Below, one piece after another: positions 1-53,017 of a DNA stretch of 64,000 nucleotides. Source of the DNA: Candidatus Omnitrophota bacterium. GTDB taxonomy: Bacteria > Omnitrophota > Gorgyraeia > Duberdicusellales > 4484-171. The notes under the pieces are model-generated. The model was not told the DNA's origin. It did not search any database and saw nothing but the letters and a program-made list of their open reading frames with translations. The stretch lies in assembly GCA_024231025.1 (NCBI GenBank), contig JAAEQW010000111.1, positions 11,055 to 75,054 on the forward strand, given 5' to 3'. Numbering within the stretch: the first letter of the stretch is position 1; the number at the start of each line of letters is the position of its first letter. A program made the translations under genes and the position numbers.

Positions 1-357
1 AGGTTCTTCCCCGTAGGAACAACCACACGACCAACAACGAATCGCCTCCCGCGCAAAACCCACTCTAGACTCTATTAGACTAGGTACACACACTTTCTCA
101 AAAACGCAAAAAACTTCAGGATCACGAAAAAACTCTGAAACGTTTATGCTGAGATTATCTAAGAACTTATCCCATTCACTGGGATCTTTTTTTAAAACTG
201 CTGTATATTCAGTTAGATCGCTTACCTTCGTTGCAAGAAACCTAGCTGCCAATCTTCGCGCAATAAAAGAACGCCGATAAAAACCAAGGGCAATGTCTCT
301 GCGCTTCTTCGCTAAAGAGATAAATAAGCTAATGTCATCCTGCGATATGGAACTCAT
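1..357 (-). CDS. cheR: Chemotaxis protein methyltransferase CheR, N-terminal part (C-terminus beyond window start)
   Basis: Hand translation of the minus strand from the ATG at 355-357 gives MSSISQDDISLF...SINVSEFFRDPEVF...IRCWSCGCSYGEEP. These are the CheR N-terminal helical domain and the start of the SAM-binding motif. No stop codon before the window edge. Confidence 0.7.
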   Translation of the reverse strand, partial: MSSISQDDISLFISLAKKRRDIALGFYRRSFIARRLAARFLATKVSDLTEYTAVLKKDPSEWDKFLDNLSINVSEFFRDPEVFCVFEKVCVPSLIESRVGFAREAIRCWSCGCSYGEEP

Positions 358-377
358 TTTTCAGCTTTATCACTTTT

Positions 378-644
378 CTAATGCTGTGGTCTGGCTTTAA
401 CCGCACCGAACGCTACAATAATTTCTTTTATAACATCCGCCTTGAATTGCACTTCCAATTCAGATAGCTTTGTATAAAGCCTTCCTTTTTCAGTTACAAC
501 ATACTTTGGAGGCAGCTTATTCAAAGCTAGCGCTAATACATCATGTTTGCACTTTTCGCATTTACATGAATCCTCCATATCTACAAGTACCTCGTCTAAA
601 ACGTCACTAACAATATCCTCCATATAATTATGCACTTCGGTCAT
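378..644 (-). CDS. ComFB-like small Cys-motif protein (88 aa)
   Basis: CKCEKCKHDVLALALNKLPPKYV motif as I recall for the late-competence ComFB family. It is homologous to the N-terminal domain of the CheR at 3279..4370 and sits between cheA and the partial cheR. Confidence 0.6.
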   Translation of the reverse strand: MTEVHNYMEDIVSDVLDEVLVDMEDSCKCEKCKHDVLALALNKLPPKYVVTEKGRLYTKLSELEVQFKADVIKEIIVAFGAVKARPQH

Positions 645-769
645 GTTCTTCTCCTGGTATAATCTTCAGGCACAACCTTGTTATGATTACACCTGATTCC
701 ATAGATTCAATATCGATTACAAAGATTAATTGCTCTATCGCTGTAATCTTACCCAAATAATACTATATA

Positions 770-2689
770 CTATTTTACATTAACTATGTCTAAAATCAAG
801 ACTACTCTTCCATCACCCAAAATAGTCGCACCAGCAACACCTTTTACCTTCTTAACAAATGACCCCAACGGCTTTACAACAACGTCTTGTTCTCCAATGA
901 CTTTATCGACTACTAGCCCCATATTCTTTACCCTTCCTTCAACTATAACAACTGATATTTGCCCATCTTCAGACGGAGTTGTTTCAATCTCCAGTTCCTT
1001 ACCCAAACGCACGATGGGTATAATCTCATCACGCAAACGAATAACTTCCGCGTCCTTAATCGGCTTAATCTCGTCTTCGCTTACTTTTACAGTCTCTCTA
1101 ATATTCATTAGAGGTATCGCATAAATATCTTTACCCATAACAACCATCATTGCCTTGATGATTGCTAAAGTCAGAGGTAAAGTTAGAATAAAGGTCGTTC
1201 CCTTACCTTTTTGGCTTTCAAGCTCTAGGCGACCGCCTATGACTTCTAGCTTGTTTCTGACGATATCTAGACCAACTCCACGACCCGATACATCAGTTAT
1301 TTCCTTAGCGGTTGAAAAACCCGGAGCAGTAAGAACATCTAGTACTTTGTCAGAATCAATTCCACTAGTTTCATCAATAGAAATTATTCCTCGTTCTTGG
1401 CCCTGGTGCAAAATTTTTTCAAAATCCATGCCTTTGCCATTATCCGAAACTTCTACAACGATGTGCCCCTTCTGCCTAGAAACATCTATCGCAATCTTAC
1501 CCTTAGGGTTTTTACCGGCCCTGGTTCTTTCTTGCGGCGACTCTATTCCATGATCAATCGCATTACGTATGAGATGAATCAACGGATCACCAACCTCATC
1601 TAAGATGATTCTATCCAGTTCAATTTCGCTACCCGATATTTCAAGATCAACACTCTTTCCTATCTTCTTTGATAGATCACGAATTAATCTAGGAAAATTA
1701 TCTAAAACAAATGATACCGGAAGTAATCTCAATTTTAAAGCTTCCTCCTGCAATGAAGCCACCAATCGTTCCAAGAAATGAGTGGTCTCCTCTAATCTAG
1801 CATGATCTTTAGTTTGAACAATTTGCACGAGTCGACTTTTTGCTATGGATAATTCTCCCATCAAGTTCATAATTTTATCCAAACGCTCAACAGGAATCCG
1901 CATGCTTTGAATCTTTTTAAGCATCGGATTAGCGCCTTTTTTGCCCTTGCTGGGTTCTGGATCATAAACAGAAACTTTAGCCTCATCTACTTCTAGTATT
2001 CTCGACAATTCTTCGGTTACAAATTTCTCATTTTTGTCGGTTAAAATAACAAATTTAAAATTTAACTCAAAATTCTCGTTCTTTAAATCATCCTCAGACG
2101 GAGTAACGCCGGCAATCTGACCAAAATCTTTTGCCCTATTTAAAACTAAAAAGGCGCGCACTCCTTTCATTGAGCAGGCTTCATTGAAAACCATTTCTAC
2201 AGAAAAAAGATTATTATTCTTATCGACCAGTTTTTTCAAACGGTCGACTTCATCACCAGTTTCCACTTTACCCTTGGATGTTTTTTTAAGCGACTGGTGA
2301 GATATGGTCTCCCCCGCAGGAAGAATGTTTTTGATTCGTTTTATATAATCAGTAACTTTTAGAGAAACTCCTTTGTCTTCTTTTATTTGTTCAGTTAAGG
2401 TAGCAAAGGCATCGGCACTCTCAAAAATTACATCCATAACCGCTGAAGTTAATTTCAATCTCTTCCTTCTGAATCCATCGAAAACATCTTCTAGAGCATG
2501 TGCGAGGTCGGCTAAATCATCATAGCGCATGGTAGCCGCCATACCTTTTAGGGTATGCATAAGGCGGAAAATGGTATTGATTGCTTCATCATCATTAGGA
2601 TTCTTCTCTAATTGAACCAAGGCCTTGTTGGTTTCTCTTAGATACTCTTGAGACTCCGCAAAAAATAAATCGCGATAACTTTTATCCAT
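770..2689 (-). CDS. cheA: Chemotaxis histidine kinase CheA
   Basis: N-terminal HPt (MHTLKGMAATM), HATPase_c G-boxes (DNGKGMD, GRGVGLDIV, GKGTTF) and a C-terminal CheW-like domain. Confidence 0.9.
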   Translation of the reverse strand: MDKSYRDLFFAESQEYLRETNKALVQLEKNPNDDEAINTIFRLMHTLKGMAATMRYDDLADLAHALEDVFDGFRRKRLKLTSAVMDVIFESADAFATLTEQIKEDKGVSLKVTDYIKRIKNILPAGETISHQSLKKTSKGKVETGDEVDRLKKLVDKNNNLFSVEMVFNEACSMKGVRAFLVLNRAKDFGQIAGVTPSEDDLKNENFELNFKFVILTDKNEKFVTEELSRILEVDEAKVSVYDPEPSKGKKGANPMLKKIQSMRIPVERLDKIMNLMGELSIAKSRLVQIVQTKDHARLEETTHFLERLVASLQEEALKLRLLPVSFVLDNFPRLIRDLSKKIGKSVDLEISGSEIELDRIILDEVGDPLIHLIRNAIDHGIESPQERTRAGKNPKGKIAIDVSRQKGHIVVEVSDNGKGMDFEKILHQGQERGIISIDETSGIDSDKVLDVLTAPGFSTAKEITDVSGRGVGLDIVRNKLEVIGGRLELESQKGKGTTFILTLPLTLAIIKAMMVVMGKDIYAIPLMNIRETVKVSEDEIKPIKDAEVIRLRDEIIPIVRLGKELEIETTPSEDGQISVVIVEGRVKNMGLVVDKVIGEQDVVVKPLGSFVKKVKGVAGATILGDGRVVLILDIVNVK

Positions 2690-2834
2690 GTTTAAAAGAT
2701 TCTACAGCTTTAAGAGGAATTTCCAAACCATTGGGGTTAGGAAGTAAGAAAAATTACCTATCAATAAGGAGCCCTCTCCAATTATTTTAGGGACATCTTC
2801 TACGGGAAGGAGCATCACCTCAAAAGCACAAACC

Positions 2835-3227
2835 TCAGCTCTCTTTGGTGCCTTCACCTAGGACTTTAGCAATAACTTCTAATAGTTTCTCGGCGGTAAA
2901 AGGTTTAACAACGAAGTCTTTGGCCCCACAGGTTAAAGATTCCTCCACCAACCTTCGTTCTGCCAGAGCAGAAACGATAATAATATTAGCCGCAGGGTCC
3001 TCGCCTGTTATTTGCTTAACTGCAGTTATGCCATCCATTTCTTCCATTTTTGGCATAACAATGTCCAACGTAACTAAATCAGGTTTTAGATCTCGATATT
3101 GCTCAACCCCTTCCAGGGCATTAGCCGCCTCTCCACAAACCTCAAAACCCGCTTTAATTACAATATCCTTTATTAAATTGCGCATAAACAGCGCGTCATC
3201 AATGATTAGAACACGTTTTCCTTCCAT
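2835..3227 (-). CDS. cheY: Chemotaxis response regulator CheY
   Basis: 130-aa single REC domain: VLIIDDALFMR...DLVTLDIVMPKMDG...VKPF. Confidence 0.85.
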   Translation of the reverse strand: MEGKRVLIIDDALFMRNLIKDIVIKAGFEVCGEAANALEGVEQYRDLKPDLVTLDIVMPKMEEMDGITAVKQITGEDPAANIIIVSALAERRLVEESLTCGAKDFVVKPFTAEKLLEVIAKVLGEGTKES

Positions 3228-3278
3228 AATTACTTATTATACCTCCCAAGATACCCTCTCACAAGCAAAAAATACCAA

Positions 3279-4370
3279 CTACACCGTGATTTTTTGATAA
3301 ATTCGGCTGTGATTTTGGGTCTCTTTAAATACTAGCCTTGCTTCAGGAACTAGATTCTCAGTTTCACCTATTATGAGATACCCTCCTTCACGCAAGGAAC
3401 GATAAAATCTATCCACAATCTGCTCTTGTAATGGCTTTGTGAAATATATGAATACGTTTCGACATAGAATTATATCTACGTCATTAATAAATTCCGATGA
3501 TGTAAGATCAAGGTACTTGAATTCTATTAATTCTTTAATTTCATCTTTTACATAATACTTGCCATTTTCAAAAGAAAAATAAGTATCAAAACTAAACGGA
3601 AAATACCCCTTCAAAACATTTCGCAATGCCGCCATCGAATCGTAAACACCTCCTCGAGCGCGCTTAAGGCTGTCCTTGTCGATATCTGTTCCGTATATTT
3701 CCAATGAGGTTTGTCTATTATTTACCTCTTGAGCAAGTATCGCTAAAGAATAAGGTTCTTCTCCTCTAGCGCACCCAGCACTCCAAAGCACAACGGGCTT
3801 TTTTCTTTCGTTATTCTCATCTACAATTTTCTCTAGCAAATCACCAACACTCTTCCATACATACGGATCACGAAAGAATTCAGAAACATTGATAGTTAAC
3901 GCTTCAAAAAGTTTTTCATATTCACCCGGGTTATCCGCTAAAACTGTCAAATACTGCGCATAAGACTTGGCATTATTAGCAACAAGACGCAATGCCAAGC
4001 GCCTTTTAAGAATACTTTTGCGGTATTGGCTGAAGTCCACTCCACGAATATCTCTAATTTTAACAATAAGATTTTCTAAGGCTTGTTCCTTGTCTTCTTC
4101 AACTGGATGAGGTAGGTTTGCATTAACGCTGTCTATCGCACCGCTAATCCTGCTGAACATATTCTGCAAGTACTTTTGGGTAACTTCTCTTTCTACTTTT
4201 CTATAGCTAGGGTCATCTTCATCGATGTAAATCGGATCAAAATCTGCGAGAAGGCACTGCAGCATTGCTGCTTTGCACTTCTCGCAGGTACAAATATCAA
4301 ATCGCAAAGCTAAACTTCTTTCTAGAAAGTATTTAAAAACTTCCTCTAAAACATTCTTAGGGTTTCCCAT
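3279..4370 (-). CDS. cheR: CheR methyltransferase with N-terminal ComFB-like domain (fusion)
   Basis: The N-terminal ~70 aa (DICTCEKCKAAMLQCLLADFDPIYI) parallel the stand-alone ORF at 378..644. These are followed by CheR motifs GVDFSQYRKSILKRRLALRL, SEFFRDP and LWSAGCARGEEPYSLAIL. Confidence 0.85.
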   Translation of the reverse strand: MGNPKNVLEEVFKYFLERSLALRFDICTCEKCKAAMLQCLLADFDPIYIDEDDPSYRKVEREVTQKYLQNMFSRISGAIDSVNANLPHPVEEDKEQALENLIVKIRDIRGVDFSQYRKSILKRRLALRLVANNAKSYAQYLTVLADNPGEYEKLFEALTINVSEFFRDPYVWKSVGDLLEKIVDENNERKKPVVLWSAGCARGEEPYSLAILAQEVNNRQTSLEIYGTDIDKDSLKRARGGVYDSMAALRNVLKGYFPFSFDTYFSFENGKYYVKDEIKELIEFKYLDLTSSEFINDVDIILCRNVFIYFTKPLQEQIVDRFYRSLREGGYLIIGETENLVPEARLVFKETQNHSRIYQKITV

Positions 4371-4388
4371 AGTTGTAAAATACTTCTT

Positions 4389-4622
4389 CTATCTTGCCTG
4401 ATTTAATTCATATAAGCTAAGAGCTATGCTAAAAAGTAAACACATTACAGAAAAAAATAGTACTTCTTTATAATTTATTCCAAAAGCAATCCGCGAAACA
4501 CTCAAAATCCTCAAGCCAATACCAACAACAAAACTTACAAAAGCCATCGCGATAAAAAAATCATCACCAACACTGTACACGCTTTTCATAATACCCCCCC
4601 CCTTTTTCTGGTTATTAAACAA
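4389..4622 (-). CDS. Small two-TM membrane protein (paralog of 36502..36732); probable true start at internal ATG 4587-4589 (MKSVYS...)
   Basis: Two predicted hydrophobic helices. About 85% identical to the ORF at 36502..36732. A G9 homopolymer lies immediately 5' of the internal ATG. Confidence 0.5.
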   Translation of the reverse strand: MFNNQKKGGGIMKSVYSVGDDFFIAMAFVSFVVGIGLRILSVSRIAFGINYKEVLFFSVMCLLFSIALSLYELNQAR

Positions 4623-4656
4623 CTTCTCGCCTAAACAAACTACACCTTAGCTTACC

Positions 4657-5193
4657 CTAATATAAATAAGTCGTCAATGTAATAGTTGCCTGCTGTCTTG
4701 GCAAAATGCTCTCACCGCGTTCAATCGCTACGCGATCAACAGAAATAACTGTTGTCAAATTCATTAGATCCCGCAAAAAAGAGACTATTTTAACAAACTC
4801 TCCTTCAAACTTCATTCTCACAGCAACCGCTCGAGCCTGTGATGACTCTTGCACAAAGCCTTGTACGGGCTGTTTATCAGCATAGTTGAATTCTATACCC
4901 TTAAATCTATTATTTGTGCCTAAAAGAGTTATCTTTTCCAACATGTTCAAAATTCCTTGCTCATCATGAGGAATCATTTCATCAACATAAGATGACGCCT
5001 CTTCTAATTCATCAATGTCTTTTTGAAGTTTCTCTATTCTTTTTTCTGCATGTCGCGCCTCTTCGATTCTATCTTTTTTTTGAGATATTTCATTCTTTAG
5101 GCGAGATATTTTTACGAATTCTAATACAAAAAAAAGAGCAAACAAAAAAATTGTTAAACCGATCGCTCCGACTATAAGCTTAAAACTTTTCAT
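4657..5193 (-). CDS. PilO-like type IV pilus assembly protein
   Basis: N-terminal TM anchor followed by a coiled-coil, with the size and position (downstream of pilM-pilN) typical of PilO. Confidence 0.5.
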   Translation of the reverse strand: MKSFKLIVGAIGLTIFLFALFFVLEFVKISRLKNEISQKKDRIEEARHAEKRIEKLQKDIDELEEASSYVDEMIPHDEQGILNMLEKITLLGTNNRFKGIEFNYADKQPVQGFVQESSQARAVAVRMKFEGEFVKIVSFLRDLMNLTTVISVDRVAIERGESILPRQQATITLTTYLY

Positions 5194-7013
5194 TCTTTAC
5201 CAACCTTAATCAATTCTGCATATATAGAAAAAAATCTTTCCCGCTGCTGCGTTAGCAAAACTCCTTGGTCTCCATCAACTGATGGTTGGATGCTCCCCAT
5301 TTCCGGCACATTTACACTCACAGCCTCAAACATATTACTTTTTTCCAATTTTTCTGTAAAACGTTCAGCCAACTCAACTGCCTTACCGTAGTCGGCAAAA
5401 CAAATCACATCCATATTCACAATGTAATTCTGGTCCAAAACCTCTGATGCTTTTTTCTTACTGGGAGGACGACGCCTACGCGATCTCGAAACAGGCGCAC
5501 TTACAACCTTAGGAGATAGAGTAAATTTTTTAAGTGTAGCATCTATCGGTGTAGCTTTTGCCACTTCCTCTAAGACAGACGCCATATCCAAACGTTTATC
5601 CAAAATATTACGCACTTCCTTTAGGCGATCATCAATATTACGTCGTTGCTGCTTTTTCTGGTCCAACATGGTGATTATCTTTTCAGATTTTTTTACCTCT
5701 AGATCCAAAGTGATTATCGTTCTAGAAAGCAATCGATTGTCTATATAGACCTTGAGCCATCCTAAAAAGGTGAAAGAAAGTATAATTATGCCAATAATTA
5801 TAAGCCCCAATTGTTTTTGTACGGCCCCTCTCTGCTTTTTCATATCCTCGGGCAAAAAGTCGATCGTCTCTTTCCTCTTCTTTACCAAAGGAATACTTAC
5901 GGCAAGCGATGTCGCAGCAGCAAACAGCGGTGTTTCTTCTTGTGAAAAACTGTCTTGAGCGCTCTGTGGCGCTTTCTCAATATTTTGAAAAGGAAAAAGA
6001 GGCTGACAGTCACCGCCGATATCCTTAACTAGAACTGGTGCCAGACCTTTAATTGTTGCAACACCACCAAGAAGAAAGACACTGTCAACACGCGAACCAT
6101 GGGTTTGATCACGATAATAAATTAATGTTCTACGAACCTCATTCGTTATTCTATCAATTTCTGTATTCCAAAGCATTCGAAGCTCTAACAAGTTTATTTG
6201 GCTATCACCGTCGGCGTTCACAGAAGCCTCATATTTCTGACGCATGATTTCTTCAGCCACTTTAACTTTGTCCTTAAGATTAATATCTACTTCTGGAACA
6301 CCTTTATCTTTTATTGTTTTTTCGACCACGCTGGCTTCGACCCCAAGAGCCCCAGCTATATGCGTGATAATATCTTTTAAACCAAATTTAATATTTCTAT
6401 AAAAATGTAATTTTCCCTTCTTAGCAATAGCAATATCTATAGACTCATGACCGATATCAACAAAAGCACTATCCTTATTTAAAAAATCAGATTCTTTATA
6501 AAATAAATTCGCCACGCTATAACAAGTAGGGCTAATTAGCGCTAACCTTACGCCTTCAAAACGATTAAAAATTTCAAAAATATTTTCGATACAGTCATTC
6601 TCGGTTTTAATTATTAAAACTTCATAACGAGCAATCTTACCCACCATAACTTCACCCAATAGCACATATTCAAAAATACTATCAGGCCCAGGCGTAGGAA
6701 CCATCTTCTTTCTTGCCTCTGTAATCGCCGCTATCTCCAACTCTTTCTTGCTCATCTTAGGCAAGTCTATAACTAGAACCGTAACTAACGCAGACGGTAT
6801 GCTTATTGCGATATCAGCATCTTTTAATCTTTTGATTGATATTTTAGAAGAAATTTGATTGAAAAAATCTTCAACATCAATTTTTTTGGATGACTCTTTA
6901 GCAAATGAAAGAGGAAACAAAAAGTTATCCAACAAAACAGTTTTTTGCTTCTGTTCCATTGAAACAACCTTAACTAAACGCGAACCAATATCAATACCTA
7001 TTAATTCTGCCAT
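5190..7013 (-). CDS. pilM: PilM-PilN fusion protein (actin-like ATPase fold + TM + PilN-like domain)
   Basis: N-terminal IGIDIGSRLVKVV (PilM/FtsA-like), an internal TM LGLIIIGIIILSFTFLGWL, then a PilN-like coiled-coil region. Confidence 0.75.
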   Translation of the reverse strand: MAELIGIDIGSRLVKVVSMEQKQKTVLLDNFLFPLSFAKESSKKIDVEDFFNQISSKISIKRLKDADIAISIPSALVTVLVIDLPKMSKKELEIAAITEARKKMVPTPGPDSIFEYVLLGEVMVGKIARYEVLIIKTENDCIENIFEIFNRFEGVRLALISPTCYSVANLFYKESDFLNKDSAFVDIGHESIDIAIAKKGKLHFYRNIKFGLKDIITHIAGALGVEASVVEKTIKDKGVPEVDINLKDKVKVAEEIMRQKYEASVNADGDSQINLLELRMLWNTEIDRITNEVRRTLIYYRDQTHGSRVDSVFLLGGVATIKGLAPVLVKDIGGDCQPLFPFQNIEKAPQSAQDSFSQEETPLFAAATSLAVSIPLVKKRKETIDFLPEDMKKQRGAVQKQLGLIIIGIIILSFTFLGWLKVYIDNRLLSRTIITLDLEVKKSEKIITMLDQKKQQRRNIDDRLKEVRNILDKRLDMASVLEEVAKATPIDATLKKFTLSPKVVSAPVSRSRRRRPPSKKKASEVLDQNYIVNMDVICFADYGKAVELAERFTEKLEKSNMFEAVSVNVPEMGSIQPSVDGDQGVLLTQQRERFFSIYAELIKVGKE

Positions 7014-7026
7014 AATTTTGTATTAA

Positions 7027-8274
7027 TTATCCAACCATCTCCACCATCTGAAACATTGGCATAAAAATTGCAAGCGCTATTCCTCCAACAACAACACCCA
7101 TCACAACAATCATTATCGGCTCAAAAGCAGTAAACAACTTCTTTATTGTAGAGGATACTTCTCGGTCATAATATTCCGCAACCTTAGATGACGTTTTAAC
7201 CAGACTTCCTGACTGCTCACCAATCGCAACCATTCTAGTTACCATTGCCGGAAATTCACCAGTCACCTTTAACGATACGGCAAGTTTTTCACCAACGTTA
7301 ACTGAGTCTCTTGCCTTTGCTATGGCGTTCTCTATTCTACTATTACCTGCCGTTTTTCTCGCTATGTCGAGACAAGTAAGAAGGTTTATCCCCGCCCTAA
7401 AAGACAAAGCGAATGTATGCGCAAATCGTGAAAGAGCCACCTTACGCAACAAATCACCAAACAAAGGTATCTTCAGCTTTACACCGTCTACATTATAGCG
7501 CCCTTTTTCAGTTGCGTTATATGTTTTATATGCAAAAAATAATGCACCGATAGCTCCCATTATAACATACCAATAGTGACGAATGGCATAGCTTACCCCT
7601 AAAACAATTCGTGTCGGCAGTGGCAAATCGCTTCCCAATTGTTCGAATATCGGAGTAAACATCGGAATAACTTTTACAACTAATAGCACCACAACACCAA
7701 CCATTACCACAAAAAGAATTAAAGGATATATCGCCGCTTCTTTCATTTTAGCCTGAAGTTCCATTTGCCATTCTAAAAGAGCAACCAAATCGTCTAGCAC
7801 TTGCGCCAACTTTCCTGTAGCTTCCCCAGCACCAATGATCGCTCTATACAATTGCGAAAAACTATCAGGATGAAACGATAACGCTCCCTCCAACGAATCA
7901 CCGCTTTCGACACGATAGCGTATATCATCCATAACTCTTTGGATTTTATCATCCCCGGCCTCTCGCGCTAAATCTTTCAGTCCTTCTAAAAGCGGAAGTC
8001 CAGCATCTATCAAAGTAGCAAGCTGAAAAGTAATCCGCAACACTTCTCGAGGATGCAAGTTTGACGCCTTTTCTGAGCGCTTAGCCGTCTTAACCCCTTT
8101 TGCAACTTTAAAACTCGTAAGATAATAGCCTAAATTAGATAACTTATCTCCCAACTCAATATCGCTTTCTGCTAGCATATTACCCTTAACCATTTTACCT
8201 TTTTCGTCTCTAACTGTATAAAAATATCTCTTCATGATTTTATAATTCGCGCCAACTATAGGAATCCTGGGCAC
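7027..8274 (-). CDS. pilC: Type IV pilus inner-membrane platform protein PilC (GspF family)
   Basis: Duplicated T2SS-F domains and three TM segments. Confidence 0.85.
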   Translation of the reverse strand: MPRIPIVGANYKIMKRYFYTVRDEKGKMVKGNMLAESDIELGDKLSNLGYYLTSFKVAKGVKTAKRSEKASNLHPREVLRITFQLATLIDAGLPLLEGLKDLAREAGDDKIQRVMDDIRYRVESGDSLEGALSFHPDSFSQLYRAIIGAGEATGKLAQVLDDLVALLEWQMELQAKMKEAAIYPLILFVVMVGVVVLLVVKVIPMFTPIFEQLGSDLPLPTRIVLGVSYAIRHYWYVIMGAIGALFFAYKTYNATEKGRYNVDGVKLKIPLFGDLLRKVALSRFAHTFALSFRAGINLLTCLDIARKTAGNSRIENAIAKARDSVNVGEKLAVSLKVTGEFPAMVTRMVAIGEQSGSLVKTSSKVAEYYDREVSSTIKKLFTAFEPIMIVVMGVVVGGIALAIFMPMFQMVEMVG

Positions 8275-12570: not shown

Positions 12571-12628
12571 CGTAATATCGGGGTCAGACCTTGAAATGAA
12601 CGGAATATCGGGGTCAGACCTTGAAATG
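12571..12628. repeat. Tandem direct repeat, 2 x ~30 bp (aatatcggggtcagaccttgaaatg); second copy is the left inverted repeat of the IS200-like element
   Basis: Read directly in the sequence: identical 25-mers at 12574-12598 and 12604-12628. Confidence 0.9.
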
Positions 12629-13558
12629 TGAAATGAGTTTATCAACATCTTTTTTTACCCGCTTTTCCTTCGCTATAATTATCTGCATGCTCTTGTCAAT
12701 CTTACTAACTGCAGAATAGCTTATGCCAAAAATATCACCAATGGCCTTATTGGTTAAACCACTGTGTCTTTTTAATAAGTATACTGCTACTTTTTTCGCC
12801 AACAACGGCTTTTTAACGGCTTTAAACAATTTGTCTGGTTCTGTTTTATAAACTTTTGCTATGGCTAAGATTATCTCACTAAAATCAACATAACAAAGTA
12901 TCTTTTTATGAGCAAAATCACCTGACTCTATCTCCGGTTTAAAATCCTTTAGTTTATCTAGAATAAACTTTTTACCTCCCAAGAATGATCCGGCATATAT
13001 ATTATCCATAAATGTATCTTTTTTGCCTATTGAACTTAGAATAAACTTTTTATAAGCAGCAGGTTTCATATTTAAATAGCGGTTCAATTCAGGATAATCA
13101 ATATATTTATCGTAACCAAGCTTTGTATAGCCTTTGAAGCTCGACCAGCGGTATTTTTCAGGGCTGTCTACCATTTTAGCCTTTACAGGGTTAAGATGAA
13201 TATAACGTGTGAGCTTTAAAAAATAGCTGTCTTCATCAACCAACAATGATTTAAATCTCCCTTGGAATAGATGACCCGTCTTATTACGTTTCTTATTGTA
13301 ATAAGTAGTATAGGATGTGTTAACATACTGCATTATTCTTGATAAATTAGGTTGCAGTATTTCAAGAAACAGATGATAGTGATTCGACATCAAACAATAT
13401 GCGTAAAGGTTGAATTGGTACTTATCCTTAGCAATAAGCAGATACTCTAAGAACTTTTCAAAGTCATACGTACTAATGAATATTTTCTTGCAGTTATCTC
13501 CCCGACTGGTTATATGGTAGAAACAATTTTCTGCTTGTAAGCGGTAAGGTCTGGCCAT
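12614..13558 (-). CDS. Y1 (HUH) tyrosine transposase-like protein, IS200/RAYT family, with C-terminal DnaA-C-like HTH domain
   Basis: FYHITSRGDNCKKIF (YHV.SRG motif), SNHYHLFLE (HuH) and LTRYIHLNPVKA (catalytic Tyr region). The C-terminus LTNKAIGDIFGISYSAVSK resembles the DnaA C-terminal HTH. The stop codon lies inside the inverted repeat. Confidence 0.75.
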   Translation of the reverse strand: MARPYRLQAENCFYHITSRGDNCKKIFISTYDFEKFLEYLLIAKDKYQFNLYAYCLMSNHYHLFLEILQPNLSRIMQYVNTSYTTYYNKKRNKTGHLFQGRFKSLLVDEDSYFLKLTRYIHLNPVKAKMVDSPEKYRWSSFKGYTKLGYDKYIDYPELNRYLNMKPAAYKKFILSSIGKKDTFMDNIYAGSFLGGKKFILDKLKDFKPEIESGDFAHKKILCYVDFSEIILAIAKVYKTEPDKLFKAVKKPLLAKKVAVYLLKRHSGLTNKAIGDIFGISYSAVSKIDKSMQIIIAKEKRVKKDVDKLISHFKV

Positions 13559-29343: not shown

Positions 29344-30303
29344 ATGAATGATTTTGACCCCACTCAAAGTAAAATTCTTTTAGCAACCGAAGACCTAAAA
29401 TTACAAGATTTTATCACGCTAATCCTTATGGGAGAAGGGTACAATATAAAAGCCTTCTTCAACCAAGACGACCTATCGCAAGAGCTTAAAAAAGAGCCCG
29501 TAGACTTGATAATCATAGATTTTTTGTCGCCAAAGATAAATGGTCTGGAGTTTTGTAAAACCATCAGAGAAAACTTTACATCAAAATACACTCCTGTCTT
29601 ATTAATTGTACCCGAAGAAACCCCCTTATTAAAAACAAAAGCTATTTTTACCGGTGCGAACGATTTTATTGAAAAACCGTTCTCATCCGAAGAACTTTTA
29701 GCCAGAACCAAAGCTTCTCTGCTTCGCGCTCAAAGATATCAAGACACTAACCCATTAACTAAGCTCCCTGGCATGTCTACTACAGTAAAAGAATTGAATA
29801 TCCGTATAGAGTCGAAAGAGCAATTTGGCGCGGCTTATTGCGATCTTGGCAGTCTAAGGCGATACAACGAACGCTATGGCTTTAAACAAGGCGACCAGCT
29901 CCTTAAATATATTGCAAAACTTCTCACGCATTCTCTTAAAAGCTTAGGTAATCCATCAGATTTCCTTGCTCACATTGGTAGCGATGACTTCTTCTTTATC
30001 ACTTGTGCCGACGGAATTGAGCCAATATGTAAAAAAATTATCAATGACTTCGAGCAGACAATTACCGATTTTTATAACGACGAAGACAAAAAACAAGGTT
30101 ATGCCATCATAAAAAACAGAAAAGGAGAGGTTTCTAAAATACCCCTTCTTCGCATGCATATCGGTGCAGTCACCAATGAGTTCTTTCCATTTGTTTCTGC
30201 CGCGATGGTGCTTCAGATTACCACTGAGCTCAAAAATCACGCTAAGAAATTTCAGAAAAGTACCTATATAAAAGAGCGAAGAAAATCTTACCCATTTTGT
30301 TAA
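29344..30303 (+). CDS. Response regulator: REC + degenerate GGDEF (GSDDF) domain
   Basis: REC with DLIIIDF...EKPF. A GGDEF-like fold (CDLGSLRRYNERYGFKQGDQLL) in which the GG[DE]EF motif reads HIGSDDFFF and no RxxD I-site is present. Confidence 0.7.
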   Translation: MNDFDPTQSKILLATEDLKLQDFITLILMGEGYNIKAFFNQDDLSQELKKEPVDLIIIDFLSPKINGLEFCKTIRENFTSKYTPVLLIVPEETPLLKTKAIFTGANDFIEKPFSSEELLARTKASLLRAQRYQDTNPLTKLPGMSTTVKELNIRIESKEQFGAAYCDLGSLRRYNERYGFKQGDQLLKYIAKLLTHSLKSLGNPSDFLAHIGSDDFFFITCADGIEPICKKIINDFEQTITDFYNDEDKKQGYAIIKNRKGEVSKIPLLRMHIGAVTNEFFPFVSAAMVLQITTELKNHAKKFQKSTYIKERRKSYPFC

Positions 30304-35534: not shown

Positions 35535-36488
35535 CTACCCCCCAATGGGGCCATCCGAAGGGGGATCAATTTCGGCTTTCCAATCGGGAACTTGTTTTAC
35601 TTCAGCTAAAATACTTTTTATGATATCCTCTCTTATTTCCAGAAATTTGACCCCAAGAAAATACCGCCCGCCACGCTCGAGGTTGCAACGCACAACCTCT
35701 GCACTGGCCTCATACGAAGAGTCTTTTGATGGAAATTTAATCATTACTTTCGAATATGGAGGCAAAAATATAAAAGTTCTTATCCCCAGAGCATTACCGC
35801 TGGCAGAAATATCCAAAACCGTAGCCGAAACATACGATGATGACACAAGCTTTACGCGCTCATCCACAGGTTTAAAATCAACCGGAAGTTTTATTGACAA
35901 TCTTTCCGATTCTCGCCAAAAAGGCATCAAGCCAAGCCCCTGTGGAGACACAATTAAATCTTCTAAGTCAAAATACTTGTCATCTGGTCCAAAAAATGCG
36001 TTTACTGCTCCTTGAATAGCGCTTGGGGTGCCAAACACCGGATAAATCTCTAAATCAGTAGCCTGCATTGTGAGAGTGCTCACTAAACCAGCATCCAAGG
36101 GATTGGCCATGCAAACATACATGATATTTTCCACTTTAAAAATCGGCAAGAAATAATTTTCCCGATAGAGAGCTTCGGGAAAAAAGCTTAAAAGTTCTGG
36201 ATCCAATTCGTAATCACTGATTCTTAAAAAGGGGATCAAGGCATGTTGAGCAAAGAACATGTAAACATCCTCTTCGGTCATAAAATTCATTCGTATCAAT
36301 GTAGAATACAAAGACTTACCGCTCTTCTGTTGCTCCTCTTTAGCCTTTATAAACTCATTAGGCTTAACCCAGGACTCTTTAATTAGTTTTGTTTCTAATC
36401 TTTCTGTCATTATTTTGATTATGGGATCTTTCTGCCGGTAACACGCGAAACCGCGGCCGCTTCGGGATGCGCCATTGCGCACCCCCAT
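35535..36488 (-). CDS. T2SSE_N (GspE/MshE N-terminal)-PilZ domain protein; start uncertain (alternative ATG at 36408-36410)
   Basis: N-terminal region matches the T2SSE_N pattern (...LDPELLSFFPEALYRENYFLPI...MANPLD...). C-terminal PilZ motifs are WRESER and DISASGNALG. Confidence 0.6.
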   Translation of the reverse strand: MGVRNGASRSGRGFACYRQKDPIIKIMTERLETKLIKESWVKPNEFIKAKEEQQKSGKSLYSTLIRMNFMTEEDVYMFFAQHALIPFLRISDYELDPELLSFFPEALYRENYFLPIFKVENIMYVCMANPLDAGLVSTLTMQATDLEIYPVFGTPSAIQGAVNAFFGPDDKYFDLEDLIVSPQGLGLMPFWRESERLSIKLPVDFKPVDERVKLVSSSYVSATVLDISASGNALGIRTFIFLPPYSKVMIKFPSKDSSYEASAEVVRCNLERGGRYFLGVKFLEIREDIIKSILAEVKQVPDWKAEIDPPSDGPIGG

Positions 36489-36776: not shown

Positions 36777-37346
36777 TTACTTCTTTTGATTAGGATAATA
36801 TTTTTTCATGAAATCTTCGATAATCTCTGAAACATGCTTCTCGCCGGTAGCATAAGCAGCACTTTCTTTAATATCTTCGGGTACGATTTTTGGGTGTTTT
36901 TCCTCCAAAGCCTTAAACCACTCCGCCTGTTGACGTACTATTCTTAAAAGCGCACGATTTTCCTTTAGTATGGAGTGATAATCAAACGCTTGTCTAACTA
37001 ATATTCTTAACTCTTCTACTTCAACCGGTTTCAAAATATAACGCCATATGTGCACCCTATTTATAGCGTCCATAGCACTTCCTAAATCGGGATAACCAGT
37101 AATCAAAATCCTTATGGTGTCAGGATAAAGACGTTTCACTTTAATAAGAAAATCAACCCCCATCATACCAGGAAGTTTATTGTCACAAATAATTAGCTCT
37201 ACTTCACCATAATCCTGTAAAATTTTCCATCCCTCTTCGGCATCTTTTGCGGTTAATATTTCCCTGCTATCATCTTCCAGAATCCTTTTCAAAGAAGAAA
37301 GAATATGCGGTTCATCGTCAACAATAAGAATTGTACTTTTCGACAT
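36777..37346 (-). CDS. Response regulator receiver protein with ~70-aa C-terminal extension
   Basis: ILIVDDEPHILSSL...ELIICDNKLPGMMGVDFL...ILITGY. Confidence 0.8.
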   Translation of the reverse strand: MSKSTILIVDDEPHILSSLKRILEDDSREILTAKDAEEGWKILQDYGEVELIICDNKLPGMMGVDFLIKVKRLYPDTIRILITGYPDLGSAMDAINRVHIWRYILKPVEVEELRILVRQAFDYHSILKENRALLRIVRQQAEWFKALEEKHPKIVPEDIKESAAYATGEKHVSEIIEDFMKKYYPNQKK

Positions 37347-37685
37347 TTAATCCTCCCAATGGTCAATTAATTCTTTTAGAAACTTTACTCCATCTACAGG
37401 AAAAACCTTGGTAAACATAACTCCCATTCCAGAAGGCAATCCGGCCGCTGGGGTTTTTCTAACCCAGGCAACCACTGCACTCGCCTGAATTCTTCGCACT
37501 TCTTCTCGGCCTACCTCAAAAATAACTTCCAAGGGAGCACCGATTTCCTCGATTTTGTCGGTAATAATGAACATCCCGCCTTGAGAAAGGTTTGAGATCT
37601 CAACACTTTGCAGGATCTTCTCCCCCGTGCAATCAACCGCCAATTTTATTTTAATGCGCCGATAACGTCGTCTTTCTTCACTCAT
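37347..37685 (-). CDS. Stand-alone PilZ domain protein
   Basis: RRYRRIKIKL...ISNLSQGGMF (RxxxR and D/NxSxxG). Translationally coupled between the histidine kinase and the receiver. Confidence 0.65.
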   Translation of the reverse strand: MSEERRRYRRIKIKLAVDCTGEKILQSVEISNLSQGGMFIITDKIEEIGAPLEVIFEVGREEVRRIQASAVVAWVRKTPAAGLPSGMGVMFTKVFPVDGVKFLKELIDHWED

Positions 37686-38538
37686 CTTGCTTCAAACTCT
37701 TCCCCTTTGGTAATGATACCACAAAGGTAGTACCTTTTCCAGATGTAGCTTCAACCTCAAGCGCTCCACCATGGTTCATTATGATTTTCCTGCTAACATG
37801 TAGCCCTAACCCAGTTCCACCTTTAGTTGTAAAAAATGGATCAAAAATTCTGGAATAAACCTTTTTCGGTATTCCAGGTCCGGTATCAATCACTTTTACG
37901 ATTACGTTTTTATCATCTTCGGTGGTACTAACCGATATAGTGCCTTTTTCCTGAGAGGTAACTTGTTTTATCGCAGCAGCAGCATTAAGTATTAAATTCA
38001 AGAAAACCTGACTAACTTTATTGGCATCCACCCAAACATGCGTCGTTGCTTTATAATCTTTTACAACATCAGCCTTATACTTTATTTCATTCCACAAAAT
38101 CCTAATTGTCGCATCCAGCAATTTATTAATATCATCACAAGAGCGCCGCCCTTTCGAAGCATGAGAAAAAGTAAGTAGATCCTGCACAATTCTTTTTATC
38201 CGATTAGCACCATCACAACATTCCTGAACACTTTCCTCAATGTTGGCAATTGTTTTATTACGATCATCAATGTCTTTTACATCGGTAATCTCCTTAGCGT
38301 AGGAAGAAATTAAGCTTAGATTCGTAATAAGAAAAGTTAACGGATTATTGATCTCATGGGCGACTCCTGCCGATAAGGTACCTAGAGATGCCATCTTCTC
38401 CAACTGTATAATTTGACTTTTATCTTCCTCTATTTTTTTCACGTAGAATCGCAGCTTCTTTTCCCAACGAAAATGCAAAAAAACCAAGTAGACAAACAAA
38501 ACAAAGAGTAGCGAAAAAAATACAATTGTGTCAAACAT
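37678..38538 (-). CDS. Membrane-anchored sensor histidine kinase
   Basis: N-terminal TM, H-box LSAGVAHEINNPL, G-boxes DTGPGIP and GGTGLGL. Confidence 0.85.
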   Translation of the reverse strand: MFDTIVFFSLLFVLFVYLVFLHFRWEKKLRFYVKKIEEDKSQIIQLEKMASLGTLSAGVAHEINNPLTFLITNLSLISSYAKEITDVKDIDDRNKTIANIEESVQECCDGANRIKRIVQDLLTFSHASKGRRSCDDINKLLDATIRILWNEIKYKADVVKDYKATTHVWVDANKVSQVFLNLILNAAAAIKQVTSQEKGTISVSTTEDDKNVIVKVIDTGPGIPKKVYSRIFDPFFTTKGGTGLGLHVSRKIIMNHGGALEVEATSGKGTTFVVSLPKGKSLKQDE

Positions 38539-38539
38539 A

Positions 38540-39760
38540 TTACTTCATTGCTCCAATTAAACTCCACATTGGTAAAAATATCGCCAGCGCCATGCCCATA
38601 ACAACCGAACCTAAAACAGCAGTCATTATCGGTTCAATCAATGCTGTTAGCCCTCCCATAGCATTTCTTACTTCCATTGTGTAATAGTCGCATAAAGAAT
38701 CAAGCATTGCTGATAGGGCTCCTGCCTTTTCGCCAATCGCAATCATATATCCAACAAGTCGTGGAAATAGCTTGCTAGCTAAAATCCCACCTGATACGCC
38801 CTTTCCGTCAGCAACATCTATCTTGATTCTGTCAATATCCTTTGCTAAAACAACATTACCAATAGTAACTTTAACAATATCAAGGATTTTTAGTATCGGC
38901 AAACCCGCCTGATATAAAACATTAAGCATCGACGCAAATCTAAGCATAACTATTTTATTGTAGACTTTACCAAACACGGGCATATTAAACTTGAAATTAT
39001 CCCATATTTTTCTTCCACCGGGAGTATTGATAAAGAATTTAAGACTAAAAATTATACCGACAAATGACGGAAAAGTAATGAACCAGTAATTTTTAAAACC
39101 TTTACTAACTAAGATCATAACTCTGGTAGGAAGCGGAAGCTCCATTTTCATTCCAATATATATTTTGGTAAACTGAGGCACAACAAATACCGATAAAACA
39201 AAAACAGCTATGAACAAAGCTACAACAACCATAACCGGATATTGTAAAGCCGCCTTGATGCTAGATCTAGTTTCTCGTTCTTCTTCTAGCACTTCAGAGA
39301 GACGCAATAGAATTTTATCTAAAACACCGCCAGCCTCACCAGCGATTACCGTGCTAACATACAAATCACTAAAGACTCCCGGATGTTTTGCCATAGATTC
39401 GGAAAGTTTTGAACCTTCTTCAATGTCATGGATAATTTGATGAAGCGCGCCTTTCAATGCTGCATCTTCGGCCTGCTCGGCTAAAACGCCCAAGCCTTCA
39501 ACAATCGGAACGGCCGCTTTAATAACCGTGGCAAACTGCCGGGTAAACACGATAACTGCCTTCATTGAGGCTTTTTTTACTCTTCCCTTAGTAAACTTAT
39601 CCAGAATTGAAACACCTTTCTCGCCCTTATAGCTTATGCTTACCGGCAAATAACCGAGCTTGGCAATTTGGGTAGAAACATCTGTTTCGTTTGCGGCATC
39701 AAGCGTACCCTTAACCGACTTGCCGCGAGAATCAACTGCTTTGTATGAATATACACCCAT
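38540..39760 (-). CDS. pilC: PilC/GspF-family platform protein (second copy)
   Basis: Duplicated T2SS-F domains. Confidence 0.85.
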   Translation of the reverse strand: MGVYSYKAVDSRGKSVKGTLDAANETDVSTQIAKLGYLPVSISYKGEKGVSILDKFTKGRVKKASMKAVIVFTRQFATVIKAAVPIVEGLGVLAEQAEDAALKGALHQIIHDIEEGSKLSESMAKHPGVFSDLYVSTVIAGEAGGVLDKILLRLSEVLEEERETRSSIKAALQYPVMVVVALFIAVFVLSVFVVPQFTKIYIGMKMELPLPTRVMILVSKGFKNYWFITFPSFVGIIFSLKFFINTPGGRKIWDNFKFNMPVFGKVYNKIVMLRFASMLNVLYQAGLPILKILDIVKVTIGNVVLAKDIDRIKIDVADGKGVSGGILASKLFPRLVGYMIAIGEKAGALSAMLDSLCDYYTMEVRNAMGGLTALIEPIMTAVLGSVVMGMALAIFLPMWSLIGAMK

Positions 39761-39764
39761 AAGT

Positions 39765-40601
39765 TTAAGTTAAGCTGAATTCTTTTATTACCGAATCAAC
39801 AAAGTTATTATCTATCTTTTTTGTTTTTTTGGCAAACCCTGAAAGTAAAATCAAATCGCACAAAGTATTAATTCTGCGAGGAATGCCTCCACTATACTTT
39901 GCAATAGATGCTACTACGTCATCGGCTAAGATAGCTACAACATCACTTTCACCATCTCCAACCGCTACCTTTATTCTATGAGCCATATAGGCGCCTACGC
40001 CTTTACCACTTAGAGGATCCAATTGACAACGAATTGGCACGCGTTGTGCCAAAGGTTTTAGCGCATCTACTTTGGCTTTTATTTCGGGTTGACCCAAAAG
40101 AATTAATGTGAGTAAAAACTTGTTTTCTGTTTGAAAATTCAATATTAACCTTAATTGTTCAAAAATTCTGGGATCTTCTATAGTATGCGCTTCATCAATT
40201 ATTACTATATTTTGCCTACCCTCTCGAGCATTATCTAAAAGTATATTATGCATTTTCTCAAGCAAAGGATCAACAAGAATCTCTGATTTTCTATCCGGTA
40301 AATCTTGCGGGCTCAGCGATCGGACTATCGCTCGTATAATCTCTGACGGTTCAGATACAAGAGGATTACTTATGTACGCTGTGCAAAATTTTTGAATCCC
40401 CAAATCTTTTAAAATAACTCTGGCAAGCAATGTCTTGCCGCAACCAAACACACCCGATAAAAGACCAGCACCAAGATTCTGAGCAACCACATAGGTAAGT
40501 TTCATCAGAGCATCCTCGTGTTGCGAAGAGAGATAAAGATACTTTGGATCCGGCGTATTTTGAAAAGGTTTCTCTTTTAAGCTCCAATATTGTTCATACA
40601 T
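39765..40601 (-). CDS. ExeA/GspA/MshM-like AAA ATPase
   Basis: N-terminal MYEQYWSLKEKPF, Walker A GVFGCGKTLL and Walker B IVIIDEAH. Confidence 0.6.
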   Translation of the reverse strand: MYEQYWSLKEKPFQNTPDPKYLYLSSQHEDALMKLTYVVAQNLGAGLLSGVFGCGKTLLARVILKDLGIQKFCTAYISNPLVSEPSEIIRAIVRSLSPQDLPDRKSEILVDPLLEKMHNILLDNAREGRQNIVIIDEAHTIEDPRIFEQLRLILNFQTENKFLLTLILLGQPEIKAKVDALKPLAQRVPIRCQLDPLSGKGVGAYMAHRIKVAVGDGESDVVAILADDVVASIAKYSGGIPRRINTLCDLILLSGFAKKTKKIDNNFVDSVIKEFSLT

Positions 40602-40762
40602 AGATTTCTCTCATACTTAGATTAACCAAAAAACGAAAAACCATAATTCAAAATTCAAAATTTCTTTCCGGAATAAAGAATTCATTTACTTTTAAATTTT
40701 ACGCTATGGTTTTACGCTTTGCGCTTTTAGTTTTTCATTAGGCTGCCACTTATCACTTGTTT

Positions 40763-42574: not shown

Positions 42575-42664
42575 ATGCTTAATAAATTAAAATACTAATT
42601 CACCCCGTCAGGTACACAGCCTATATAATAGTGTATCTAGCGGGGTGAATCAATACTCTTTAAT

Positions 42665-43315
42665 CTAGTCAATGTGTTGGTTTTCGATGCCGTCAATCCA
42701 ACTCTGTACAACTTTTCTTTGCCTTTTAGCTGAACTATACTTTACGTATTTCTTATAGCACTTTACGGCATTTCTGCGGTCATTAATATAATTCTCATAA
42801 ATAACCCCTAGGTTGTAGTAACTATCGGCATCCTTTTTTCTATGTAAAACAACTTTTTTAAACTCTTCTGCTGCTTGATTATATTCTTTTAGACGCAAGT
42901 GAAGCACCCCTAGATTGTAATGTATGAAGTGATTTTTTGGGTATTTTTCCAAAGCTTGTTCATAAAATCTTTTAGCATTTTTAAAATCTTCATTATAATA
43001 GGCTTCCTTAGCCCTCTCTAAAGGATTATCCACAACGCTAGTTACTGCAGGGATAATCACCCCTTCCGAAGGGACATCGACTCTAGACACTTGCGTATGT
43101 GGTTTGACATCTACATCTTTAAGTATTTTTTGCGCCTGCATAAAAGCCTTATTAGCCTCTTCGTATTCATCATTACGTAAAAATTCTTTTCCCTTCAAAT
43201 AATAATCTTCCGCGGTATTTATACTAACGCCATAGTCGGAGGTTTGAGCAAGCGCGACAAAACAAATCGCGCTACACACAAAACTAAGGAGATATTTCTT
43301 TAGTTTATTCTTCAT
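42665..43315 (-). CDS. TPR-repeat protein with signal peptide (PilF/PilW-like?)
   Basis: Signal peptide plus 3-4 TPR-like helical pairs. Confidence 0.45.
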   Translation of the reverse strand: MKNKLKKYLLSFVCSAICFVALAQTSDYGVSINTAEDYYLKGKEFLRNDEYEEANKAFMQAQKILKDVDVKPHTQVSRVDVPSEGVIIPAVTSVVDNPLERAKEAYYNEDFKNAKRFYEQALEKYPKNHFIHYNLGVLHLRLKEYNQAAEEFKKVVLHRKKDADSYYNLGVIYENYINDRRNAVKCYKKYVKYSSAKRQRKVVQSWIDGIENQHID

Positions 43316-46108: not shown

Positions 46109-46147
46109 TATAACCCAAAAAAACTGTTAGTAAAACATCTTTTGCTG

Positions 46148-46630
46148 TTACTCATCCTGCGGCAAAACCAAATAAAAACTCTCCGCCCCCCTCTTGAGGA
46201 GTACCTTATTTTTTTCTACTTCATCTACTTTATAACCGAAAACAAAGTTACCGACTGTAACTATTTCATTATTTATTATAGCATACCCTCTTCCCTTTTG
46301 GTCAATTGACACGCCTTTGAGGGTTAGGCTTGAGCCATGATAAACATCTTTATTGATTTTGTGATAGAACGGATCCATACCCCACTCGAGCCCCGCTCGT
46401 TCATGCTGTTTTCTAATCTCATCAGGGCTGGCCCTAACAAAAGTTGATTGGCTAGATGTTGCTGTTTTAGATTTAACAGCTGGAGGAAGATTTATTCCGC
46501 CAGTCGAAGTAGCCACCGCAGAGCGTGATTTTTTTTTCTTTTTCTTAGGTGCAAGATTATTAATCACGACTACAATCAACACCAACACCAAGGCACCCAC
46601 TATAATCATTTGTTTTTTTTGTTTGTCCAT
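46148..46630 (-). CDS. PilP-like protein
   Basis: Single N-terminal TM and a small beta-rich C-terminus. Positioned between pilO-like and pilQ. Confidence 0.35.
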   Translation of the reverse strand: MDKQKKQMIIVGALVLVLIVVVINNLAPKKKKKKSRSAVATSTGGINLPPAVKSKTATSSQSTFVRASPDEIRKQHERAGLEWGMDPFYHKINKDVYHGSSLTLKGVSIDQKGRGYAIINNEIVTVGNFVFGYKVDEVEKNKVLLKRGAESFYLVLPQDE

Positions 46631-46631
46631 A

Positions 46632-47228: not shown

Positions 47229-47297
47229 AAAGCTCCTTAAATTACTATCAAAATTTTATCAAGCGAAGTCCACCATAGCCTTGGCGAAGGCGGATAA

Positions 47298-51299: not shown

Positions 51300-51300
51300 A

Positions 51301-52316: not shown

Positions 52317-52317
52317 A

Positions 52318-53001: not shown

Positions 53002-53017
53002 CGCTTAATGGCGAAGA

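Follow-up and report, generated by a model that had tools for sequence, protein, structure and literature searches.

ComFB domains linked to the chemotaxis methyltransferase CheR, both as a fusion and as an adjacent gene, in Candidatus Omnitrophota

ComFB proteins became established as a widespread family of cyclic dinucleotide (c-di-NMP) receptors only in 2023-2025, and binding of cyclic di-GMP (c-di-GMP) and cyclic di-AMP (c-di-AMP) has been published for the family (Samir et al., PMC12448109). No direct target has been identified for the effect of ComFB on motility (PMC12265714). The fusion of a ComFB domain to the methyltransferase CheR in Candidatus Omnitrophota is already on record, in a single sentence of Samir et al. 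(PNAS 2025, PMC12448109; also bioRxiv 2024). In Pseudomonas aeruginosa, the c-di-GMP-bound protein MapZ inhibits CheR1-dependent methylation of methyl-accepting chemotaxis proteins (PMC6370697). Here we analyze a window of 64,000 nucleotides (nt) from a Candidatus Omnitrophota bacterium (GenBank assembly GCA_024231025.1, contig JAAEQW010000111.1, positions 11,055 to 75,054 of the forward strand) in which ComFB is linked to CheR twice, once in a fusion gene (ComFB~CheR) and once as a stand-alone comFB gene followed by a second cheR (cheR2). An earlier note, written by a model from the letters of this DNA, had proposed from this pairing that the small domain gates receptor methylation, possibly as a second-messenger input into adaptation.

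The region is a type IV pilus assembly block (pilC-pilMN-pilO) joined to a chemosensory operon. On the minus strand, the gene order from 5' to 3' is pilC, pilM/N, pilO, an open reading frame (ORF) of 77 amino acids (aa), ComFB~CheR, cheY, cheA, comFB and cheR2. The genes that the earlier note singled out are where it put them: the fusion of 363 aa at 3279..4370, the ComFB of 88 aa at 378..644 and CheR2 at 1..357, of which the window edge leaves only the N-terminal 119 aa. Copies in NCBI that are 100 % identical bear the names protein-glutamate O-methyltransferase CheR and late competence development ComFB family protein. The cysteine motifs quoted in the note are present at residues 25-49 of each of the two ComFB-bearing proteins.

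The ligand site of the family has been defined in Bacillus subtilis ComFB (BsComFB). In its numbering, the c-di-GMP contacts are D33, N40, K/R41, A36, L37, V47 and Y55, the dimer residues N4, E7, D33, N40 and Y46, and the zinc ligands C25, C27, C30 and C88, the last of which is not conserved even within Bacillota (PMC12448109). The dissociation constant (Kd) for c-di-GMP rises from 0.17 uM to 12.6 uM in D33A (about 74-fold) and to 5 uM in N40A (about 30-fold; PMC12448109, Table 1). We mapped these positions onto both window domains through alignments with the BsComFB structure, 4WAI.

The 88-aa protein matches the Pfam ComFB family (PF10719) over positions 1-83 of the 83-position profile with 91.8 bits (cut-off 25, E=2.9e-26), and its PDB matches are 4WAI (E=3.2e-9) and 8HJA (E=5.7e-3). 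All equivalents of the canonical c-di-GMP contacts are present (D35, A38, L39, N42, K43, V49 and Y57), as are all those of the dimer positions (N6, E9, D35, N42 and Y48). Among 38 stand-alone orthologs N6, E9, C27, C29, C32, D35, N42, Y48 and the C-terminal H88 are invariant, and K/R43 and Y57 are nearly so. The invariance of C27, C29, C32 and His88 points to a predicted Cys3-His zinc site, with His88 standing in for Cys88 of BsComFB. Judged by these residues, second-messenger sensing by the 88-aa protein is plausible and well grounded, and for this protein the idea of a second-messenger input stands. Among the ligands that the earlier note had named for testing, c-di-GMP and c-di-AMP are backed by published binding (PMC12448109), but binding of cyclic AMP is unreported for the family.

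The N-terminal domain of the fusion (residues 1-90, 4101..4370) is a more diverged member. It matches PF10719 with only 22 bits (E=1.7e-4, profile positions 1-82 of 83), under the gathering cut-off of 25 bits, and the profile search suggested in the earlier note thus succeeds for the stand-alone protein but falls short for the fused one. The two window domains are 28 % identical (BLASTP, E=3e-7). Across the fusion family, 57 of 70 members match the Pfam profile at E<=1e-3 (best 9.5e-20). When a profile of 25 fusion-family N-domains was compared with the 88-aa protein by hhalign, the probability was 99.2 % over 88 columns (E=9.6e-20). The AlphaFold2 (AF2) model of the full-length fusion has a mean predicted local distance difference test score (pLDDT) of 89.3 and a predicted template modeling (TM) score of 0.79; Foldseek with this model returned only CheR and other methyltransferases, and the N-domain was therefore modelled alone. 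For that model (residues 1-95, pLDDT 86.4) the top five Foldseek matches are 4WAI and 8HJA only, the next having probabilities <0.1, and TM scores are 0.72-0.78 for 4WAI and 0.41-0.67 for 8HJA, the cyanobacterial CdgR. Because the profile comparison and the structural matches agree, we conclude that the fused N-domain is a true ComFB fold despite its Pfam score. A generic zinc ribbon, which the earlier note had named as a refuting outcome, is ruled out for both small domains by this fold and profile evidence. The fused domain is longer than the 70 aa or so assigned to it there, covering about 90 aa and ending at the invariant His88.

While the fold is retained, the ligand site of the window's fused domain is degenerate. 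It keeps N6, E9, C27/C29/C32, Y48, I49 and an aromatic residue near the Y55 position, and the residues N6, D25, C27, C29, C32 and H88 are invariant in the fusion family. The contact positions read A35, A42 and D43 where BsComFB has D33, N40 and K41, and Q38 and C39 where it has A36 and L37. In 120 fusion homologs the D33 position is Asp in 52, none has Asn at the N40 position, where 66 have Ser, and 89 carry Arg or Lys at position 41. Three states of the ligand site can be distinguished by locus: stand-alone ComFBs of che operons are fully canonical, type A fused domains are near-canonical (D, A, aromatic, S/T, R/K, Y, V) and type B fused domains, among them those of the window's clade and of the downstream fusion in tandem pairs, are variable. 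Since the polar contacts at D33, N40 and K41 are lost in the window lineage, a nucleotide-gated fused paralog, the other half of the proposed second-messenger input, is doubtful to judge by these substitutions.

The methyltransferase part of the fusion (3279..4100) consists of CheR_N (residues 97-148) and the S-adenosylmethionine (SAM)-dependent methyltransferase domain (161-352), directly followed by the stop. Both Pfam matches lie above their gathering scores (CheR 167.7 bits, CheR_N 45.9 bits), and the PDB matches include 5FTW (E=4e-37), 1AF7/1BC5 and 5XLY. By Foldseek, the C-terminal part superposes on B. subtilis CheR 5FTW (TM score on the target, TMt, 0.88), Salmonella CheR and P. aeruginosa CheR1; the CheR1 structures from MapZ complexes, 5XLY and 5Y4R, are among the matches of the full-length model. 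R167 in the motif FFRD and Y309 in the motif IYF align with FFRE and IYF of 1BC5. Among 70 homologs, the motifs FFR(167)D and NVFIY(309)F vary little or not at all, with R167 and Y309 invariant; in a basic helix, R123 and R128 are likewise invariant and K122 and R124 at least 90 % conserved. We take R167 and Y309 to correspond to the catalytic Arg98 and Tyr235 of Salmonella CheR, and K122-R128 to be the basic receptor-binding helix. The module looks intact and enzymatically competent by these residues. CheR2 (CheR_N 36.9 bits, CheR 29 bits) opens directly with CheR_N at residue 7 and continues into the start of the SAM domain, leaving no room for a ComFB domain, as the earlier note had seen; its full-length ortholog in the related locus L002 has 278 aa.

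To place this arrangement among relatives, GTDB species genomes were scanned for the motif LxLRFDICTC, and the resulting 32 loci were mapped by our own ORF calling and phmmer. Almost all of them bear an Omnitrophota label or an unresolved 'Planctomycetia' label. L002 is syntenic with the window and reads, by Pfam annotation, pilC-pilMN-pilO-comFB~cheR-cheY-cheC-cheA-comFB-cheR2-cheY-cheD-cheB-cheC. L001, L002 and L003 all have the pilC-pilMN-pilO block in synteny with the fusion. The fusion closes this block in L001 and L003, where unrelated housekeeping genes come next, which suggests that the fusion travels with the pilus genes in this clade; within it, a che operon adjoins the fusion only in the window and L002. 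Tandem comFB~cheR pairs occur at 8 genome loci, and at 6 an extra stand-alone ComFB lies directly upstream of a fusion.

Searching metagenomes with the stand-alone ComFB family yielded 80 loci. At 35 of them cheR follows comFB immediately, with a spacing of -26 to +37 nt and many overlaps of 1 to 4 nt. At 7 loci cheY comes next inside a che operon with no neighbouring cheR, one locus is cut by a contig end, and the remaining 37 have no che neighbours and mostly fall outside the che-operon cluster in the tree. Thus comFB is immediately upstream of cheR in 35 of 43 che-context loci. The typical operon is cheY-cheC-cheA-(cheC-actin-like ATPase)-comFB-cheR-cheY-cheD-cheB-cheC-(cheW or PilZ), and Pfam-annotated contigs bear out the gene assignments at these loci. 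At L020 and L072, a ComFB~CheR fusion adjoins a che operon that lacks cheR. With more than 100 fusions and 35 adjacent pairs, and with both states side by side in the window and in L002, ComFB and CheR form a Rosetta-stone pair, and the argument from fusion plus adjacency made in the earlier note extends well beyond this stretch.

The fusions form a large monophyletic family. In a neighbor-joining (NJ) tree all CheR domains of fusions fall into one clade (98/100 bootstrap), separate from the CheRs adjacent to a ComFB gene; the latter include L002 CheR2, which stands in for its window ortholog, too short to be placed itself. The group of adjacent CheRs has a support of 30/100 within a poorly resolved backbone, and B. 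subtilis CheR nests among them. In the ComFB tree the fused domains and the extra upstream ComFBs make up one cluster beside the stand-alone ComFBs of che operons, with the type B domains on long branches. The extra ComFBs lie about 40 nt upstream of type A fusions (L017, L025, L027-L030), have lost D33 (K, E or A) and kept Y55, and cluster beside the domains of their neighbours, which looks like local domain duplication followed by divergence. The order of domains in the fusion, ComFB then CheR, mirrors the gene order comFB-cheR. These observations fit a history in which a collinear pair of comFB and cheR fused once, long ago; the fusion gene then duplicated, and in some copies the ligand site decayed. 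The converse, that comFB and cheR2 are the products of a recent fission of a type A fusion, was considered and rejected, as CheR2-type enzymes fall outside the monophyletic fusion clade.

Candidate sources and receptors of second messengers are found in the same surroundings. The window encodes a receiver (REC)-GGDEF-like response regulator with the motif GSDDF (29344..30303, plus strand), an MshEN-PilZ protein (35535..36488, minus), a stand-alone PilZ protein (37347..37685, minus) and an MshEN-bearing PilB/MshE ATPase (40763..42574, minus). The che operons of the closest relatives hold a PilZ gene and a REC-GGDEF-like gene, 38-44 % identical to the window's, and REC-GGDDF genes lie inside or beside che-comFB operons in L033 (10800..11732), L039, L063, L066 and L075. 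Predicted c-di-GMP receptors are therefore abundant around these systems. As a separate observation, GGDDF is reminiscent of the GGDD of the Cas10 palm, and one relative has a faint precomputed match to Cas10-Cmr2_palm2.

The data show the identities and folds of the domains, the states of their residues, synteny and monophyly; from them we infer nucleotide binding, contact between ComFB and CheR and the direction of the effect. We hypothesize that the 88-aa ComFB, a member of a conserved group of che-operon orthologs, most likely acts as a dimeric receptor of c-di-GMP or possibly c-di-AMP. Its gene is translationally coupled to a downstream cheR in most relatives. The ligand-bound protein would bind CheR2 and alter chemoreceptor methylation, most likely inhibiting it, which would be functionally analogous to what the PilZ adaptor MapZ does to CheR1. 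The window's fused domain, which keeps its zinc site and the dimer residues at N4, E7 and Y46, has probably lost canonical nucleotide sensing and more likely provides an otherwise intact CheR with a means of dimerisation or docking. We give about an even chance to this combination, in which the stand-alone ComFB is a receptor acting on CheR2 and the fused domain a ligand-blind dimerisation or docking module.

Several observations weigh against it. B. subtilis ComFB was concluded to act on flagellar function and not on chemotaxis (PMC12265714), from which the target of ComFB may differ between lineages. The ComFB of T. denticola binds c-di-GMP weakly, with a Kd of 284 uM (PMC12448109); family membership is therefore no guarantee of a useful affinity. 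The che operons with comFB-cheY and no adjacent cheR, together with the ComFB loci without che genes, suggest that the partner may be another che component or may depend on the lineage. The GGDEF-like proteins linked to the operons carry GGDDF, or GSDDF in the window, instead of GG[DE]EF, so that a local source of c-di-GMP is uncertain. Finally, the loss of binding in the fused domain is read from residue substitutions.

Alternative explanations depend on which ComFB copy senses and what it acts on. Conceivably, a cyclic (di)nucleotide is still bound by the fused N-domain, in a non-canonical pocket, and the domain gates the methyltransferase in cis. The intact fold and predicted zinc site, the retained Y48, I49 and aromatic residue near Y55, and the flexibility of ligand contacts across the family (PMC12448109) are compatible with such gating, and it is plausible for type A domains, about half of the fusion family, in which D33, A36, R/K41, Y46 and V47 are kept and N40 is replaced by Ser. 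For the window copy we consider it unlikely: it has A, A and D at D33, N40 and K41, where the single changes D33A and N40A already cost BsComFB 74-fold and 30-fold in affinity; the contact positions vary freely in its subclade, resembling relaxed constraint; and the low Pfam score and the long branch in the ComFB tree point the same way. Also rather improbable is that the che-operon ComFB is a nucleotide receptor with a target other than CheR (CheA, CheY, CheD, the upstream actin-like ATPase, or the pilus or flagellar motor), adjacency to cheR reflecting mere shared operon membership. The more than 100 homologs in which CheR, alone among the che proteins, is physically fused to ComFB, the tight and often overlapping spacing of comFB and cheR, and the cheR-less operons of L020 and L072 with their adjoining fusions all argue against this explanation; it draws support from the 7 comFB-cheY operons lacking cheR, from the MreB/FtsA-like gene of about 700 aa directly upstream of comFB in most relatives, from the inhibition of flagellar function, reportedly not chemotaxis, by BsComFB (PMC12265714) and from comFB genes in pilus operons of other phyla.

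That neither copy signals, and that a zinc-stabilised fold instead serves purely for dimerisation or for tethering CheR at receptor arrays, much as pentapeptide tethering or TPR extensions do for other CheRs, we regard as highly unlikely. ComFB proteins are dimers (PMC12448109), and in every class, degenerate ones included, conservation is highest at N4, E7, Y46 and the zinc ligands, as a tether would predict. A scaffold has no reason to keep ligand positions, however, and in the 38 stand-alone orthologs D35, N42 and Y48 are invariant and K/R43 and Y57 almost so; in addition, c-di-GMP binding was observed for each of the four non-cyanobacterial ComFBs examined in published work (PMC12448109). 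A more elaborate version of ComFB acting on CheR, specific to Omnitrophota and very improbable as a whole, would be a closed feedback loop in which CheA phosphorylates an operon-linked REC-GG(D/S)DF protein, this protein makes a cyclic dinucleotide, and the stand-alone ComFB senses it and acts on both CheRs. The stand-alone protein would act on CheR2 and, through a heterodimer with the ligand-blind domain, on the fused CheR; sensing would thus be split, with docking left to the degenerate domain, and the output of the pathway would rewrite adaptation, possibly that of pilus-based and not flagellar behaviour.

The other genes of the locus are all on the minus strand. The fusion is followed after 51 nt by cheY (2835..3227), encoding a single REC domain of 130 aa (Pfam Response_reg, 91 bits), and cheA (770..2689) encodes a protein of 639 aa with the architecture Hpt-P2-dimerisation-HATPase-CheW and has syntenic orthologs in L002, L033 and L035. 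The cheA-comFB gap is 125 nt and the comFB-cheR2 gap 20 nt. The 145-nt gap between cheY and cheA (2690..2834) holds no cheC, a gene present in this position in L002 (11961..12572), L033, L035 and most relatives. For the operon beyond the left edge of the window we relied on the syntenic relatives L002, L038, L039, L048, L050 and L066. On the upstream side of the fusion lie pilC (7027..8274; Pfam T2SSF), the pilM/N fusion (5190..7013) and, nearest to it, pilO (4657..5193), with Pfam PilM_2 and PilO matches across the pil block (4657..8274). The ORF between pilO and the fusion gene (4389..4622) encodes a hydrophobic membrane protein of 77 aa; it is unconserved, phmmer finding no homolog at any of the 32 loci from related genomes, and is possibly not a genuine gene. 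A scan of 1..5300 for promoters and terminators gave counts equal to the shuffled expectation. A separate cheY transcript starting from a promoter-like site with 10 of 12 matches in the fusion-cheY gap (3264..3236) is accordingly not supported.

In most related che operons a gene for an actin-like ATPase of about 700 aa, with MreB/FtsA/PilM-like Pfam matches, stands directly upstream of comFB (for example L035 4891..6984 and L020 4492..6660, and most of L040-L117). Neither the window nor its closest relatives have this gene; an actin fold is an unusual conserved component of a che operon. Elsewhere in the window, a second type IV pilus cluster (38540..49049) contains pilC, an AAA ATPase, MshEN-PilB, a tetratricopeptide repeat (TPR) protein, secretin, pilO and pilMN. 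It is flanked by the MshEN-PilZ and PilZ genes, and a histidine kinase and a response regulator lie alongside (36777..38538). Between this cluster and a Y1 transposase-like gene are five consecutive ORFs without a Pfam match (49464..55126, minus; 611, 175, 163, 227 and 702 aa). Two ORFs carry IS200-like Y1 transposase domains (12614..13558 and 55140..55787, both minus), the first fused to a DnaA C-terminal-like helix-turn-helix domain. An ORF of 2635 aa (56024..63931, minus) has an N-terminal HATPase_c domain and HEAT repeats at about 1527-1623, with no Pfam match in the remainder.

The conserved and frequently overlapping comFB-cheR gene pair and the large single-origin fusion family name a concrete candidate for the target of ComFB, the adaptation methyltransferase CheR. 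If this is true, it would be a second route, structurally unrelated to PilZ/MapZ, from c-di-GMP to chemoreceptor methylation. The locus family also offers a natural domain series for dissecting function, from ligand-competent stand-alone through near-canonical fused to degenerate fused domains. The value is limited in that the fusion is published, the organisms are uncultured and the claims that go beyond sequence are conditional.

The nearest described proteins are the published Omnitrophota fusions (e.g. UniProt A0A1G1PT98), which come from the same phylum and have the same order of N-terminal ComFB and C-terminal CheR; the window protein belongs to this family. Samir et al. devote their sentence to the architecture and give no operon analysis, and the word 'CheA' is absent from the preprint text. 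What is added here to their main texts is the conserved pairing of a stand-alone comFB with cheR in che operons, the occurrence of fusions in tandem or behind a further ComFB, their single origin and the degenerate ligand site of the subclade. BsComFB (4WAI) and CdgR/SyComFB (8HJA) share the fold and the zinc cysteine triad with the 88-aa protein, which is identical at the contact and dimer positions. They differ in the fourth zinc ligand, Cys88 in BsComFB against the putative His88 here, and in context, which is comF or hfq there and a che operon here.

The likeness to MapZ-CheR1 is one of mechanism: there a small stand-alone c-di-GMP receptor binds CheR and inhibits receptor methylation, which ties the second messenger to adaptation, and the same is proposed for the 88-aa ComFB and CheR2. 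MapZ is a PilZ beta-barrel, whereas ComFB is helical and zinc-bound, and ComFB-CheR2 would be an analogue suggested by genomic linkage. We know of no MapZ-CheR fusion. In CheR-TPR proteins (FrzF, WspC) and pentapeptide-tethered CheR, a CheR core is combined with a module that controls where or when receptors get methylated. The Omnitrophota proteins differ from these in that the module is N-terminal, has the fold of a nucleotide receptor and also occurs as a separate adjacent gene.

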